Assembly (NCBI RefSeq): GCF_018420025.1
Contig: NZ_JAEDAM010000083.1
Coordinates: 1 to 5,908 of the forward strand
Reading direction: 5' to 3'
DNA length: 5,908 bases
Source: Candidatus Vampirococcus lugosii
GTDB taxonomy: Bacteria; Patescibacteriota; Gracilibacteria; Absconditabacterales; Absconditicoccaceae
Both the position numbers and the translations under genes were made by a program. The first letter of the stretch is position 1. The number at the start of each line of letters is the position of its first letter. Below, piece after piece: positions 1 through 5,908 of this stretch. Below the pieces are notes generated by a model, which saw only the letters and a list, made by a program, of their open reading frames with translations, had not been told where the DNA came from and searched no databases.

Positions 1-320
1 ATTGCAGCTTGTTTAAGTATAGTAAATCATTTACCATATTTTTCTTCATTACCAGCAGCAGTAACCATTTGGAAAGCTCACCAAAGAAGTACTATTAATG
101 CTATAAATGCCATAATTCAAAGTACCCAGTTTATACCCTTTTGAATTACATCTAAAAATCATTCTCATTTCAAACTATCAGAACCAGGTGTATCAGGATT
201 AATTCATCAAGGATCTGCTCAAAATCATGATCTTGCACCAGGATCTTGAGCAAAAGATAATGATCATAAAGATAATATAAAAATAGATAACAATAAAATA
301 ATTTTCTTAATCATATCCAT
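1..320 (-). CDS. Small secreted pilin-like protein, a candidate TrbC/VirB2-type T4SS pilin of the kind common in CPR bacteria. The C-terminus is cut by the window edge.
   Basis: ATG at 320-318, with an alternative ATG at 314-312. The frame is open to position 1 with no TAA or TAG, and I count 10 in-frame TGA. Translation with TGA=G: MDMIKKIILLLSIFILSLGSLSFAQDPGARSGFGADPGGINPDTPGSDSLKGEGFLDVIQKGINWVLGIMAFIALIVLLWGAFQMVTAAGNEEKYGKGFTILKQAA... This shows a signal peptide (..SFA|QDP), a Gly/Pro-rich linker, then a hydrophobic helix followed by WGxFxMxTAxGxxxKxxK, which matches my recollection of small T4SS-pilin-like proteins. The family assignment comes from motif memory only. Confidence 0.6.
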
Positions 321-480
321 TAAATTATAATAAATAAATGTAACATTATTATACAAATATTTTTCAATAATTCAAGTAATTTTTATATATTTTTTATTTT
401 TTTTAATAAAACTAAACTATTTCTATAAAATTATAGTATAGAATTTTTATAACATTTTTTATATTTAAATATATATTAAA

Positions 481-2031
481 TTAAAATAATTCTATGAGGT
501 AAATTAATTTTTGTAAATTTCTATCTGACAATAAATCTTTTTTTGATTGATAAAAATCATTTAATTGTCATTCCAAATTATTAATTTGTAAATTTTCTAA
601 TATTTCATATAATGAATGTATTTTTTTTGTATCTTTTTGAGTTAATAAATAAAACTTTTCTTTATCAGTATTAATTTCTGTATCAATATTATTTTCTGTA
701 TCAATATTATTTTCTTTTTTTGTATAAATATCTTTTTCTGTATAATCCATTTTTAGATTTATTTTTTCTCATATATTTACATTTTTAGTTTCTCATTTAC
801 TGTTTATGAATTTTAAATTAATTTTTTTTAAATCTTCAATCATAGATTCTATTGAATTAGAATTTATATTACATATATCAAAATATTTACATAAAAAATC
901 ATTAAGTTCTGCTAAATTATTTTCATATGTAATATGATTTTCAATAAATCCTATAAATCAATCTCAAAGATTTTCTTTTAAAGATCTAGCAAGTATTTGA
1001 GGACATTTATTTATCAAATGATTCATATTATCATTTATATATTTATTTCTATGTTCAAAATCTTCAAATTTTATCCATCATTCTTTATAATGGCTTAAAT
1101 TAAGACATATTTTGTCTACTCCAAAATAACTATAATCTATTTCATTTCAATCTCAATTATCATCAAATGTTGGATCATAATATTTTCAATCCATTTTTAT
1201 CCAAGAATGCAAATATCAATCAACTCTTATATCACTGTTTAATATACTTTGTATCTCTCATACTATTCTTTCTCAATCAATTCATAAAAGTCTAGCAAAA
1301 AAAAGATAACTTAATACATATCAATCACAAACATTTTTTCATTTTTCCAAAAAATTTCATAATCTCCATGGTCCCATGTCTTTCGGTAGATTCTCTAATT
1401 TATTCAATATATCATAATCATATTCAGTATTGGAAATAATATATTCATAAATTGATTTTTTTAAATCTCATTTTTCTTTATTTAAATTATTTATTTGTTC
1501 CAAATTGGAATCAATTTTATCTTTATTTTCTTCAATATATTTTATATCAAAATTTGTATAATTATTCATTGATATATATAAGTTATTATTACTTACATAA
1601 CATTCATTTCATACATTTCATCAACCCAAAGCTTTTAAATCATAATTATTTACAAATAATAAATGTTCATATGCATCCATATATTTTTTATTTATTGTTA
1701 GTTGTTGACAAATAGATTTTTTTAATTTATTTTTTTTCCTGATTAATGCAGAATATTTATTTCATTCTTTCAAAATAAGTATATCAGAATTATCCAAAGA
1801 AAATTGATCTTTAAGTATTTGTTCATCCGTTTTATTTTCTATCATATAATATGATACACTTCATAAAATAATATAAGAATTTCATTGATTTGATGTATAA
1901 ATTTTGTTTGAATATATTCAGTCATTTATATCTATTATTTCATAATTTTTATTTAAATAATCAAAAAAATTAGCAAAACTCATTCAAAACATTATTCCCC
2001 AAAATATAAATAGACTTATTAATATTTTCAT
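481..2031 (-). CDS. Secreted or membrane-anchored transglutaminase-like (Cys-His-Asp papain-fold) domain protein with coiled-coil-like regions, 516 aa.
   Basis: ATG at 2031-2029 is the first ATG after an in-frame TAA six codons upstream. The stop is TAA at 483-481, and 1551 nt gives 517 codons. There is no in-frame TAA or TAG, and I count about 25 in-frame TGA. The provided 60 aa ORF (568-750) is the C-terminal part of this frame. The N-terminus MKILISLFIFWGIMFGMSFANF is hydrophobic and signal-like. Core motifs: EKGKNVCDGYVLSYLFFARLLGIDGERIVGEI...GYLHSWIKMDGKYYDPTFDD, matching the transglutaminase-like pattern G-x-C...R-x-x-G-I..V-x-G...H-x-W...D-P-T. The Cys codon is at 1329-1327. K/E/N-rich heptad-like stretches lie mid-protein and at the C-terminus. 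Confidence 0.8.
676..715 (-). repeat. In-frame 18 bp perfect tandem repeat of about 2.2 copies inside the 516 aa gene.
   Basis: The plus-strand unit ttctgtatcaatattatt occurs at 676-693 and again identically at 694-711, followed by a partial ttct at 712-715. It encodes ENNIDT-ENNIDT on the minus strand. A diverged third copy (EINTD) follows it in the protein. Confidence 0.9.
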
Positions 2032-2858
2032 ATTATTTTTATAAATTTAGTAAAAAAATTTAATTCATTTAATATTTCTTCCAAAATTTCATCATTATTT
2101 GGCTTTTCTATATCTATCCAAAAAATATATTCAAAAGGATTTTCTTTTGATGGTAAAGATTCTATTTTTGATAAATTAATATTTTTGGTAGCAAAAGATC
2201 ATAAACATTTATATAAAATAGCAGGTTCATCTTTTGTTTTGAATATAATACTTATTTTTCATTTTTTATTTTTGAAATTTTTTATAAATTCATTATTTTC
2301 AAAAATTTCATTATTCATAGATTTATCTTTTATTATAAGAAATCTTGTAGTATTTCATCATTGATCTTGTATGTCGCTATCCAATATATTTAATCAATAT
2401 ATTTCACTACAAAATCCAGATGCAATAGCTCATATACTATCATCTTTTGATTCTGAAATCATTTTGGCAGCTAGTGCTGTATCAGAAAATTCTTGCAATT
2501 TTATTCAATTATTATTTATATATTTTTCACATTGCATAAGTGCTTGAATATGACTATATACTTTTTTTATTTTTGATATATCTTTTGTTTTTGCAAGCAA
2601 TTTATGATTTATCATTTTGTAATATTCTCAAACAATTTCAACATCATTTTCATAAATATGATAAAAGTTTTCATATATAGGTCATGCATAACTATTTTCT
2701 ATAGGAATACATAATAGATTTTTATTATTAATTTTTTGGAAAACATCTTTGAACGAAAAATTTCAATAAATTGAAGTTTCAATATTTAAACTATTTTTTA
2801 ATAATTGTGATACTTCACTTGAATAAGAACCTATTATTCATTGATAATTTATTTTCAT
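2019..2858 (-). CDS. pheA: Prephenate dehydratase (monofunctional PDT catalytic domain plus C-terminal ACT domain), 279 aa.
   Basis: ATG at 2858-2856 and TAA at 2021-2019; 840 nt gives 280 codons. Translation with TGA=G: MKINYQGIIGSYSSEVSQLL...CIPIENSYAGPIYENF...EIVGEYYKMINHKLLAK...KVYSHIQALMQCEKYI...FSDTALAAKMI...IGAIASGFCSEIYGLNILDSDIQDQGGNTTRFLII...ISIIFKTKDEPAILYKCLGSFATKNINLSKIESLPSKENPFEYIFWIDIE...FIKIIGKY*. This matches PDT hallmarks as I recall them: YQG-x-x-G-S/A-x-S, P-I-E-N-S-x-x-G, G-E, SHPQAL-QC, DTA-AA, AIAS, Y-G-L, N-x-TRF, ESRP-x-x-x-NPWEY-F-x-D, and L-G-S-Y at the end. I count 12 in-frame TGA, and most sit on those conserved Gly positions. Confidence 0.9.
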
Positions 2859-2888
2859 ATACAATAATTTATTATATAAATTTTTTCT

Positions 2889-3794
2889 TTATTTCCATAT
2901 GATATGATCATCATCTCAAATTAATGGACTATTCAAAATTCTAAATTTTTTATTTGTATTCCATATATCAACTAATTTATCAAAATTTTTATCTACTTCC
3001 AACATTAAATTAGCTAGTTCATCAATTTCTTCAAAATCTTTTTCCGTAAATTTATCAAATTTATTTCAAATATAATATGGTGCTTGAAGATATAAAATTT
3101 CATTATTCATTAAACTATGAAAATCATAAAAAACAGCCCAAAGAACTGGTAATAATCATTTATAACCTCAAGCATTAATAAAATTATCAGCATTTAATTT
3201 TCATTGTCTAATTCATAACCAAGTATTTGCAGACCAATCAAATTTTTCTTCAGGAATATTATATTGATCAAAATCAAGGAAATCTTCAAAAAATCAATCA
3301 GCATCAAAATTAATCCATTTTTTTTGATTTTGGTCCCAATATTGATTTATCCAATGATCCCAACTTCAATCAGAAAAATATGGAGCAAATCATGAACGAA
3401 CTCTACAAGGAATATTTTTTGATTTCAAAATTGTTGCCATTAATATCGCAACATAACGACAAGTTACAACAATTTTATCTTCAACTTTTCTATCTTTATG
3501 AAATCATTTATCGTCAAGTCTTAATAATTCTGCAATCATTGAAACAGAATTAGGTAAGATATCATCTTCACATCTTAATCTATGCCATGGAAATTTTTCC
3601 ATATCTCAATAAATTAAATTTTTATTTGCATTTGTATTAAGATCTCTTAATGTTACTCTATGAATAATTTGATGACTTATTAAATTTCATAATTGTTTTA
3701 CATCATCTGGTAAGCTCTTTAAAAAATTTTCATAACAACCTGGATTTGTAAATACACTAAAATTTAAATAATGATTTAATATATTTTCATTCAT
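2889..3794 (-). CDS. Cytoplasmic-type transglutaminase-like domain protein (Cys-His-Asp core), 301 aa.
   Basis: ATG at 3794-3792 and TAA at 2891-2889; 906 nt gives 302 codons. I count 12 in-frame TGA and no TAA or TAG. Translation: MNENILNHYLNFSVFTNPGCYENFLKSLPDDVKQLGNLISHQIIHRVTLRDL...DKIVVTCRYVAILMATILKSKNIPCRVRSGFAPYFSDGSWDHWINQYWDQNQKKWINFDADGFFEDF...IGDDDHIIWK*. The pattern C-R-x-x-A...IP-x-R-V-R-x-G-F...D-H-W...W-x-x-F-D-A-D is the transglutaminase-like core arrangement. There is no N-terminal hydrophobic segment. Ten Trp are already encoded by TGG. Confidence 0.8.
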
Positions 3795-3945
3795 ACAAAA
3801 TAATATTTAGATATATAAATATCTTTATATATTATATTAATTTTTTAAAAAAACAATACAAAATAAAAAAAATATCAAAAATATAAAGATATGTTTAATA
3901 AATGATATTCAAAAAAGGAATATAAAATAAGTAATTTTAAATTAT

Positions 3946-4087
3946 GTAGTACAAAAAATATTTTTATTTTCTCGCAAATCCTTGATTTAAATCAAGATTT
4001 AGAAGAAAATAAAATTATAAAATTTGTGTACTACACAAATCTATTTTTATTTTCTTGCAAATCCTTGTCTAAATCAAGGATTTAGAA
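3946..4087 (+). repeat. Two tandem ~60 nt direct repeats in the divergent intergenic region. Function is unknown; they are candidates for a small-RNA or leader element.
   Basis: R1 (3946-4004) is gtagtacaaaaaatatttttattttctcgcaaatccttgatttaaatcaagatttagaa. R2 (4028-4087) is gtactacacaaatctatttttattttcttgcaaatccttgtctaaatcaaggatttagaa. By eye they are about 85% identical with a few indels, and a 23 nt AT-rich spacer separates them. Each copy contains a stem-loop built on the AAATCCTTG/CAAG(G)ATTT arms. Confidence 0.75.
3962..4014 (+). other. Extended hairpin in repeat copy R1.
   Basis: The outer 11 bp arms are perfectly complementary: ttttattttct (3962-3972) pairs with agaaaataaaa (4004-4014). 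They enclose the perfect 16 nt palindrome cttgatttaaatcaag (3981-3996). The structure is inferred from complementarity only. Confidence 0.55.
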
Positions 4088-4095
4088 ATTTTGTT
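4059..4095 (+). other. Stem-loop followed by a T-tract in repeat copy R2. It resembles an intrinsic terminator or attenuator on the plus strand, but no plus-strand gene lies upstream.
   Basis: A perfect 9 bp stem joins aaatccttg (4059-4067) to caaggattt (4075-4083), with the 7 nt loop tctaaat. The sequence agaaattttgtt follows at 4084-4095. On the minus strand no U-tract would follow the hairpin. Confidence 0.4.
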
Positions 4096-4186
4096 CTACA
4101 AAGATGAGGTTAAATTAAAATTTCTATTGATATTTTTTTATTTTTATATATTAAATGTTTAATTTATTGTATAAAATTTAATCTTA

Positions 4187-4558
4187 ATGATTATAAATAA
4201 AGAAAGATATTGAGATATCAATATTTGAAAATTAATTATATTATCAATATCGATAATATTGGCAGTATGGTTGATATGAATATTGTTATATTTCAATATA
4301 AAATACCAAAAAACGGTTGTGTTATACTCAGCATTATGAAATATAGATACTGCTTCTCAAATTTTAATAGATTTAGATATATGTGATGAAGATTCTAAAA
4401 ATATTAAAATTACTTATAATGCAATTTCTTCCAAATATACATTAGATTGTGACTTAATAGAATGAACTATTCAAGATTATAAAATACAAGAATTAACTGA
4501 TTTAAACACAATTAATGCTACGACATGAAAAGCAATTTATTCTATACCTGATAAATAA
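4187..4558 (+). CDS. Small single-pass membrane-anchored protein of unknown function, 123 aa (paralogue 1 of a tandem family).
   Basis: ATG at 4187 and TAA at 4556-4558; 372 nt gives 124 codons. Six in-frame TGA and no TAA or TAG. Translation: MIINKERYGDINIGKLIILSISIILAVWLIGILLYFNIKYQKTVVLYSALGNIDTASQILIDLDICDEDSKNIKITYNAISSKYTLDCDLIEGTIQDYKIQELTDLNTINATTGKAIYSIPDK*. It has one hydrophobic helix followed by an ~80 aa two-Cys domain. That domain is about 45% identical to the next gene over the ASQ..CDL core. Confidence 0.7.
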
Positions 4559-4572
4559 TTATCAAAAATATG

Positions 4573-4600
4573 TTGACTTATAAGATAATATATTTATTAT
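4573..4600 (+). promoter_or_regulatory. Candidate sigma70-type promoter for the 4635 gene.
   Basis: TTGACT (4573-4578), a 16 nt spacer, then TATTAT (4595-4600). The -10 element ends 34 nt upstream of the ATG at 4635. Matches to -10 elements are cheap in DNA this AT-rich, but the G/C-containing -35 hexamer is less so. Confidence 0.3.
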
Positions 4601-4634
4601 TAAGATAATAAATTTATATTTAAAATATATAATT

Positions 4635-5024
4635 ATGAGCAAAAATAAAAAGAATAATTCAAAAAAGCATATTAACGATTTTAAATTTTTGTTTATAATA
4701 TTTGTTGTAGCTATTATAACTATATTAACAATGGCTTGTTATTTTAAAAAAAATACTGTAGAAGTTTTTAGTTATTGAATGATGACTGATATAAATATAG
4801 CATCACAGACTATGATAGATTTTGATGTATGTAAAAAAGATTCGTCTCAAATTTCATTAGAATATAATAACATGAAAAATAATTATAATTTGAGTTGTGA
4901 TTTGAATTTATCGGAATTTGAGAAATATATTTGGAAAATACAAGAAAATCAAAATATTAAAATACTAAACATTAGTTCTACAGGAGCTATATATGAATAT
5001 AAATGATTAACAAAAAGTAATTAA
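4635..5024 (+). CDS. Small single-pass membrane-anchored protein of unknown function, 129 aa (paralogue 2).
   Basis: ATG at 4635 and TAA at 5022-5024; 390 nt gives 130 codons. The provided 75 aa ORF (4779-5006) is the interior of this frame, bounded on both sides by TGA codons. Translation: MSKNKKNNSKKHINDFKFLFIIFVVAIITILTMACYFKKNTVEVFSYGMMTDINIASQTMIDFDVCKKDSSQISLEYNNMKNNYNLSCDLNLSEFEKYIWKIQENQNIKILNISSTGAIYEYKGLTKSN*. It has a basic N-terminus, a TM helix, and the same two-Cys domain as paralogue 1, with 21 residues between the Cys in both. Confidence 0.75.
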
Positions 5025-5036
5025 TAAAAAAATCTA

Positions 5037-5064
5037 TTGAAAAATATATAAAATATTGTATACT
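5037..5064 (+). promoter_or_regulatory. Candidate sigma70-type promoter for the 5117 gene. It overlaps a TGTATACTACA box.
   Basis: TTGAAA (5037-5042), a 16 nt spacer, then TATACT (5059-5064) with TG at 5057-5058 directly abutting the -10 hexamer. The ATG at 5117 lies 52 nt downstream. The AT-rich background makes this weak. Confidence 0.25.
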
Positions 5065-5116
5065 ACAATTGAATAGTAATTATGCAATTTTTTATATATT
5101 TTTAAAAAAAATAAAT

Positions 5117-5908
5117 ATGTCAAATATATATTATATGTTAACATTTACAATAATGTTTAGTTTGGTAGTATTATTAGTTTTTACTATTAGGTCTTTTATG
5201 CTAACAAATGATGCTTATTATTGAGTAAGTTTTGTGTCTATCAATAAAAATTATCAAATAGATACTTTGGACAATATTGATTATGATTCTGAAAACATTA
5301 TTTTTGTAAAAAATATTCCTCAATCTTGTATAGATGATTCTAATCATTCTATATATTGTTTATCAGATTTAAAAAAAAAATGATGATTTTATAATGGAAA
5401 ATGGTTCAAAGGCGAAGATGTTGGTTCTATAAATAATAATTCTTGTAATATAATAGTAGAAAATTGAGAAAGTATACAAACTGCAATAGATAAAGCTAAA
5501 GAAGATTATGTAATATGTTTAAAATCTTGAAATTATGAAGGAGATTTGGAAATAACAAAAGAATGAATTGTTTTAATTAGTATAGGTGAAGATAATGTTC
5601 AAATAGAATGAGACATTGTCTTGTCTGGTGTAGATGAAGATGATTTTAAAATAATTAATATAAGTAATAATTCTTGTGATATAACTGTAGAAAATTGAGA
5701 AAGTATACAAACTGCAATAGATGATGCTCAAGAAGATTATGTGATATGTGTAAAATCTTGAACTTATAAAGAGAATTTAGAAATAGATAAAAAATGAATT
5801 GCTTTAATAGGTGTCGGTACAGATAGATCAATATTGGATGGTACAGATATTAATGAACATTGAATATATATTTATAATTTTGATAATATTGAAATTAAAA
5901 ATATTGAA
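5117..5908 (+). CDS. Membrane-anchored surface protein with a duplicated parallel beta-helix (pectin-lyase-fold, NosD/CASH-like) N-cap module. The 3' end runs off the window.
   Basis: ATG at 5117, open through 5908 for 264 codons. I count 11 in-frame TGA and no TAA or TAG. Translation: MSNIYYMLTFTIMFSLVVLLVFTIRSFMLTNDAYYGVSFVSINKNYQIDTLDNIDYDSENIIFVKNIPQSCIDDSNHSIYCLSDLKKKGGFYNGKWFKGEDVGSINNNSCNIIVENGESIQTAIDKAKEDYVICLKSGNYEGDLEITKEGIVLISIGEDNVQIEGDIVLSGVDEDDFKIINISNNSCDITVENGESIQTAIDDAQEDYVICVKSGTYKENLEIDKKGIALIGVGTDRSILDGTDINEHGIYIYNFDNIEIKNIE... The string SIQxAIDxAxxxDxIxVxxGTYxExLxIxKxIxLxGxG....ldG is the familiar start of right-handed beta-helix surface proteins. Confidence 0.85.
5435..5896 (+). 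repeat. Intragenic tandem duplication of a 231 nt (77 codon) unit, two copies.
   Basis: Copy 1 spans 5435-5665 and copy 2 spans 5666-5896, an offset of exactly 231 nt. The first ~95 nt of each copy differ at about 8 positions and include a 36 nt perfect run (5456-5491 = 5687-5722). The remainder is much more diverged but stays in register at the protein level. Confidence 0.85.

Follow-up and report, generated by a model that had tools for sequence, protein, structure and literature searches.

UGA as the main glycine codon in a 5,908 bp contig of Candidatus Vampirococcus lugosii

Reading of UGA as glycine (genetic code 25) is known from the Absconditabacteria/SR1 and the Gracilibacteria (Campbell et al. 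2013; Rinke et al. 2013; both cited in PMC8629427 and PMC8080830), and bacteria with this code have been noted to rely heavily on TGA for Gly (PMC10746230). A tRNA-Gly with anticodon UCA, together with the absence of release factor 2 (RF2), are the expected markers of a UGA=Gly code (Shulgina & Eddy, PMC8629427). For the Absconditabacteria, reading of CGA and CGG as Trp has also been proposed (Shulgina & Eddy 2021, PMC8629427). The 2021 genome paper of V. lugosii (PMC8080830) states that UGA is Gly in this organism, and its genes were called by Prodigal with table 25. The subject of this work is the meaning of the in-frame TGA codons in contig NZ_JAEDAM010000083.1 from the draft genome of V. 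lugosii, a predatory bacterium; the whole contig, 5,908 bp with a GC content of 20.0%, is referred to below as the window. UGA is the main Gly codon of the window. V. lugosii almost certainly uses code 25, with UGA as Gly, UGG as Trp and TAA as the sole stop seen, and with decoding presumably by a Gly-type tRNA(UCA) in a cell lacking RF2. As this reassignment is already published both for the clade and for V. lugosii, it represents no new biology, and an earlier note on this DNA, made from the sequence alone, had also regarded the recoding as known. That note had placed the fragment in the candidate phyla radiation (CPR), within the code-25 clade, and the lineage proved right: the table-25 translations of pheA (P0001) and of a gene for a 301 aa protein (P0121) are identical to NCBI V. 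lugosii proteins, and NCBI taxonomy lists V. lugosii in the phylum Candidatus Absconditibacteriota.

When TGA was counted as a stop (table 11), no stop-free run in the window was longer than 113 codons, and the second longest had 91; both lie on the strand opposite real genes and fall within the range obtained from 500 dinucleotide-preserving shuffles of the window (mean 80, maximum 149). When TAA and TAG were the only stops, the longest runs were 521, 305, 296 and 289 codons, compared with a shuffle maximum of 187, and the share of the window covered by open frames of 100 or more codons rose from 5.7% to 92%. Readthrough of TAG or TAA in place of TGA did not restore the genes of the window, and the pattern of long runs was absent. 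The window is coding only with TGA as a sense codon, as the earlier note had claimed, and the seven long frames that it had seen over about 85-90% of the window span 87.5% as measured (four genes on the minus and three on the plus strand). Its statement that the standard code yields three short open reading frames (ORFs) was loose as a count, given that table 11 yields 19 ORFs of 40 aa or more, up to 87 aa, but holds in substance, frames of at least 100 codons being confined to the low coverage given above.

An alternative is that TGA keeps its usual role as a stop, the window being either non-coding or made up of pseudogenes. It draws on the lack of any long ORF under table 11, and has next to no probability. 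It is refuted by the frames of 289-521 codons free of TAA and TAG, which never occurred in the shuffles, and by full-length, end-to-end family matches, with E=1e-46 for pheA against Pfam PDT and 58-74% identity in the family of the 301 aa protein. Furthermore, relatives keep in-frame TGA codons at the same conserved columns, and the pair formed by pheA and the neighbouring gene for a 516 aa protein is syntenic in a relative (GCA_964483725.1, designated L003).

The 1,724 in-frame codons of the seven genes include 78 TGA, 24 GGN and 20 TGG. Hence, TGA makes up 4.5% of all codons and 76% of the Gly codons (78/102). All five complete genes terminate in TAA, and no other stop codon was seen in the window. 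The TGA:GGN ratios counted by hand in the earlier note were exact for the 516 aa gene (25:5), pheA (12:2) and a pilin-like gene (10:5), as was its figure of 22 Trp residues, in place of 10, for the 301 aa protein if TGA were Trp (10 TGG plus 12 TGA). In a comparison of tables 11, 4 and 25, which the same note had suggested, the amino-acid composition was normal under table 25 only, with 5.9% Gly and 1.2% Trp, the values under table 4 being 1.4% and 5.7%, respectively. The genetic code decides every gene call in the window: table 11 returns nothing, table 4 returns proteins with the excess of Trp just mentioned, and table 25 matches the deposited annotation.

UGA is read as Trp (code 4) in Mycoplasmatales and several insect endosymbionts, and the low GC content of the window would fit a reassignment of that type. 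The residue carried at the TGA columns was therefore tabulated in standard-code homologs of two independent proteins, and both gave Gly and 0% Trp, in agreement with the call of Gly rather than Trp in the earlier note. The 301 aa protein is unusually conserved: it has 118 homologs, 58-74% identical over the full length, of which the named ones are from standard-code lineages. Its 12 TGA columns contain 76% Gly and 0% Trp, with Gly the commonest residue in 11 of them and, in four, missing from at most one of the 118 homologs. The 10 TGG columns contain 87% Trp and the two GGT columns 97% Gly. Two motifs singled out beforehand behaved as expected, the TGA of VRS[TGA]FA being aligned to Gly and the TGG-encoded Trp of DHW to Trp in 118/118 homologs.

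For pheA, 80 loci from species-representative genomes were translated from DNA and 77 standard-code homologs were used; three loci with many in-frame TGA codons (L005, L010 and L013) were left out. The 12 TGA columns contain 45% Gly and 0% Trp. Among non-gap residues, Gly occupies columns 7 (69/69), 59 (78/78) and 277 (78/78) throughout; column 77 has 42 Gly and 31 Ala, and column 155 has 44 Gly, which bears out the earlier assignment of the pheA TGA motifs to Gly positions. Prephenate dehydratases of the PDB agree with Gly at these columns (2qmx, E=1.6e-36). A further case was found in UvrC encoded by a sister contig (L001, 8.3 kb), which is 98% identical to the window across 3.8 kb: the glycines of the GIY-YIG motif are TGA codons and align to Gly in PDB 1yd6.

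A Codetta-style log-odds score was calculated over the 24 TGA columns of the two proteins, as a form of the code inference that had been proposed for the full contig. It gave +65.2 bits for Gly, -35.6 for Ser and -85.5 for Trp, a margin for Gly of ~100 bits over the next residue and ~150 bits over Trp. Nine of ten control codons (TGG, AAA, TAT, GAT, TGT, TTA, AGA, TCA and GGT) returned their standard meaning; the tenth, GGA, returned Glu from one aligned column only. A codon-by-codon comparison of five code-25 pheA genes gave 17 pairings of TGA with GGN and none with TGG. Pfam scores went up with Gly and down with Trp at TGA in all five proteins scored: PDT in pheA (159.3 bits with Gly, 142.7 with X and 136.0 with Trp), Pectinesterase in the beta-helix protein (37.4, 29.3 and 28.1, respectively), T4SS_pilin in the pilin-like protein (27.8, 22.2 and 23.2, with a cut-off of 26.6), and Transglut_core in both the 301 aa protein (29.0 with Gly, 25.6 with Trp) and the 516 aa protein (17.7 with Gly, no hit with Trp).

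The opposite picture is obtained from close relatives in public collections. Of 119 close relatives of pheA in a large public protein collection, 104 contain more than 2.5% Trp and have Trp at the TGA columns of the window; Trp is also the residue most often seen at the TGA columns in the family of the 516 aa protein, and it stands at TGA in the Logan copies of the window's own proteins (P0122 for the 301 aa protein and P0241). These residues, which would favour TGA as Trp, stem from gene calling with table 4. The table-4 translation of the window reproduces P0122 exactly, and at the TGA columns Gly is found in those relatives that use GGN. The window's GGT codon at pheA position 10 faces 'W' in 81 relatives; column 247, a true Trp column, is Trp in 112. 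The family consensus of the relatives accordingly has 'YYQWxPWAYS' in place of the true 'YYQGxPGAYS'. The Trp-bearing relatives of pheA are genes of code-25 lineages called with table 4, and because they carry table-4 Trp, protein-level comparison with close relatives is unusable. A naive check of the TGA columns on such relatives would wrongly refute UGA=Gly; the correct residue is given only by standard-code homologs or by codon-level comparison. As judged by the column tests, which found no Trp at 24 TGA columns, and by the composition, TGA as Trp is refuted and we consider it highly improbable.

The pheA locus L010 (CAZPIB010000007.1), labelled 'uncultured Candidatus Peribacteria bacterium', has 11 in-frame TGA codons at Gly-type columns. 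Because of these, this metagenome-assembled genome is one that uses TGA as sense, although the label usually goes with the standard code.

A third possibility is that UGA is read as some other residue (selenocysteine, Cys, Ser or Ala) or ambiguously. It could appeal to pheA columns 77 and 143, which are Ala- or Ser-rich, to the label 'tRNA-SeC' that ARAGORN gives to the tRNA(UCA) of relatives, and to wobble at U34, which could in principle misread UGG (PMC8629427). At 4.5% of codons TGA is far too frequent for selenocysteine, and the tRNA(UCA) in question is an ordinary cloverleaf and not of the Sec type. Cys is essentially absent from the TGA columns and Ser scores negatively, as given above, and the TGG columns remain 87% Trp. 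This possibility likewise has very little chance of being correct.

Relatives and the literature suggest that, under code 25, a tRNA of its own, bearing the anticodon UCA, would decode UGA. On the same basis this tRNA would have the glycine identity set G1:C72, C2:G71, G3:C70 and U73 and would be charged by glycyl-tRNA synthetase, and RF2 (prfB) is predicted to be absent, leaving no competition at UGA. Contigs of the JGI metagenomes were scanned with a tRNA pattern that combined anticodon UCA with this identity set. Of 120 hits, 77 belong to two tRNA families that are conserved; the contigs carrying them have mean GC contents of 0.34 and 0.30 (minimum 0.18), and reading TGA as sense raises their ORF coverage from 0.29-0.33 to 0.82-0.86. 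All 77 are labelled 'tRNA-SeC' by ARAGORN. The tRNA(UCA) of relatives is an ordinary 7/5 cloverleaf of 76-79 nt with a 7-bp acceptor stem, a short variable loop and encoded CCA. The other 43 hits lie on contigs with a mean GC content of 0.55; many of these hits seem to be fortuitous and to fall within genes, although several are tRNA-like. One contig of 155 kb (Ga0172380_10000129) carries both a tRNA(UCA) with Gly identity and a pheA ortholog (P0067) with in-frame TGA codons. The scan shows that tRNA(UCA) with Gly identity accompany genomes in which TGA is sense; it does not imply the absence of Trp-type tRNA(UCA).

On a metagenome contig of 18% GC (L124, 3968-4137), a tRNA(UCA) lies 15 nt upstream of a tRNA-Gly(UCC). 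The two have acceptor and T-arm features in common, and their D and anticodon arms are strongly different.

Several observations weigh against code 25 as set out here or fail to add to it. For the V. lugosii assembly, 38 tRNAs are reported; no tRNA gene is present in the window that could represent the decoding tRNA of the genome, and on the sister contig L001 the only tRNA is a tRNA-Arg(CCU), with no tRNA of anticodon UCA. The tRNA pattern demanded Gly identity and was thus blind to a Trp-type tRNA(UCA). A few of the 118 homologs of the 301 aa protein could be code-25 proteins translated with table 25. Finally, several TGA columns are variable, namely 32 (where most homologs have Pro), 167, 168 and 200 in pheA and 243 in the 301 aa protein; such columns are expected at surface positions, yet give no added support for Gly. 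No tRNA(UCA) was found in the flanks of the code-25 relatives L003-L005, L010 and L013, Rfam returned nothing credible on the window (a sub-threshold snoRNA match, E=0.26), and the part of the supplements of the V. lugosii genome paper (PMC8080830) that was accessible does not mention release factors, tRNA-Gly, prephenate or transglutaminase.

The seven genes are listed in Table 1.

Table 1. Genes of the window when TGA is read as a sense codon, with in-frame counts of TGA, GGN and TGG.
Gene or product	Position	Strand	TGA	GGN	TGG	Remarks
T4SS-pilin-like gene	3..320	-	10	5	2	start ATG at 320; runs off left contig end
Predicted transglutaminase-like protein, secreted or membrane, 516 aa	481..2031	-	25	5	4	ends TAA
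pheA, prephenate dehydratase with ACT domain, 279 aa	2019..2858	-	12	2	1	ends TAA
Transglutaminase-like-domain protein, 301 aa	2889..3794	-	12	2	10	ends TAA
Small predicted membrane protein, 123 aa	4187..4558	+	6	0	1	closed unless TGA is sense
Small predicted membrane protein, 129 aa	4635..5024	+	2	1	1	
Beta-helix (pectinesterase-like cap) protein, N-terminal 264 aa	5117..5908	+	11	9		runs off right contig end

The 3' end of pheA and the start of the 516 aa gene share 13 nt (2019-2031). The pair and the same 13-nt overlap (10813-10825) are kept in L003, of which the pheA product is 54% identical to that of the window. This arrangement suggests that the two genes form a translationally coupled unit. 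Reading TGA as sense also opens plus-strand frames antisense to pheA (2023-2622, 199 codons) and to the pilin-like gene (1-330, 109 codons). A family search with these two frames gave no match, and they are shadow frames, not genes.

The 516 aa protein has a putative Cys-His-Asp core at C235/H275/D286-D290. Its family, gathered with the Trp-translated Logan copy P0241 as the query, consists of 24 cluster representatives out of 1.84 billion, and all of these have H275, D286 and D290, with C235 almost invariant. The family profile matches PDB 9crn ('Transglutaminase-like domain-containing protein') with E=3e-18, and Pfam Transglut_core is matched by 10 of the 24 members. These two matches bear out the transglutaminase-like core that the earlier note had recognised. 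In the alignment to 9crn, 'VCD[TGA]Y' corresponds to VCNGY, and the TGA of 'IV[TGA]E' to the G of 'IRG', consistent with the earlier reading of the latter motif; '[TGA]KNVC', which had been taken for a conserved Gly as well, lies at a variable column (K 10, G 3, W 2), and that part of the claim was not sustained. Most members of the family are rich in Trp and poor in Gly, which suggests that these relatives are table-4 translations of code-25 genes.

At 656-739 the 516 aa gene contains an 18-nt tandem repeat encoding ENNIDT-type units. The L001 allele encodes 528 aa, with an extra 'NIDIDENIDIDK'; this acidic repeat is polymorphic in length at the level of strains.

The homologs of the 301 aa protein come from CPR bacteria (Saccharibacteria, Buchananbacteria and Magasanikbacteria), Woesearchaeota and Aenigmarchaeota (DPANN), Dehalococcoidales, Rickettsiales and the Firmicute Iocasia. 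Pfam covers residues 111-165 only, and a sequence search for a solved structure gave none. The protein looks like a member of a widely transferred family to which no function is assigned. The idea that the 516 aa and 301 aa proteins are paralogs was rejected, as profile-profile comparison gave no relationship (probability 0.6%); each separately matches the transglutaminase superfamily.

A complete version of the pilin-like gene, encoding 134 aa, is present on the sister contig L001 (4293-4697). The N-terminal ~60 residues of the mature protein are almost unrelated between the window and L001, and the C-terminal part, with the transmembrane segment and AAGNEEK, is nearly identical. Positions 134-272 of the window, within this gene, have no BLASTN match in L001. 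The divergent N-terminal part may represent either a surface segment that is hypervariable or a cassette that has been exchanged.

The two small predicted membrane proteins are tandem paralogs (38% identity, E=3e-16), each with one N-terminal hydrophobic segment and two conserved Cys residues; neither gave a credible family match. The beta-helix gene contains an internal direct repeat of 167 nt (5428-5594 and 5659-5825, 84% identity), by which the cap motif 'NNSC-I-VENGESIQTAID-A-EDYVIC-KSG-Y' is present twice.

The divergent intergenic region (3795-4186) contains two copies of a 51-nt element (3954-4004 and 4037-4087), 80% identical and 83 nt apart. Each folds as a long A/U-rich hairpin around AAATCCTTG...CAAGGATTT (z = -5.4 and -3.2). 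Because they lie upstream of both divergent genes, the hairpins are not obvious terminators. Breaks occur at this place in two independent Logan assemblies: contig L002 ends at window position 3983, and L001 diverges after 4006. The region could be a multi-copy element, an operator or a hotspot for chimeras of multiple displacement amplification (MDA). A GC-richer hairpin, GGTGAGCCAGAAACCAC...GTGGTTTCAGCAAATCACC, is found at 215-306 of L001, in sequence not shared with the window, and gave only sub-threshold, miRNA-like matches in Rfam.

Codon usage bears on a second possible departure from the standard code. CGA, CGG and CGC are absent from the 1,724 codons of the window, and AGA accounts for 20 of the 24 Arg codons. 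L003 has four CGA or CGG in 5,822 codons, and L001 a single CGA, at codon 240 of UvrC, in 'YE[R]AGFLRD'; this is a position of the UVR motif that we take to be occupied by E, R or K and not by W, and it lies outside the part covered by UvrC chains of the PDB. It is conceivable, if somewhat doubtful, that CGA and CGG no longer encode Arg in V. lugosii and are either unassigned or read as Trp, and if so table 25 would not be the full code of this organism.

In comparison with described systems, the window resembles code 25 of the Absconditabacteria/Gracilibacteria in its in-frame TGA codons at conserved Gly columns, TGG as Trp, TAA/TAG as stops, low GC content and heavy use of TGA. Nothing categorical separates it from other code-25 genomes; its TGA share of the Gly codons, given above, is at the high end, with 86% in the relative L003, and its GC content is at the bottom of the range of 0.21-0.53 in the clade (PMC8629427). 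The CGA/CGG=Trp proposal concerns the same clade, and these codons are vanishingly rare in both the window and L003, but the window has none to align. Code 4 of Mycoplasmatales/Entomoplasmatales and insect endosymbionts captures the same codon, likewise in AT-rich reduced genomes with an expected loss of RF2. The difference lies in the amino acid, as the TGA columns of the window are Gly and never Trp.

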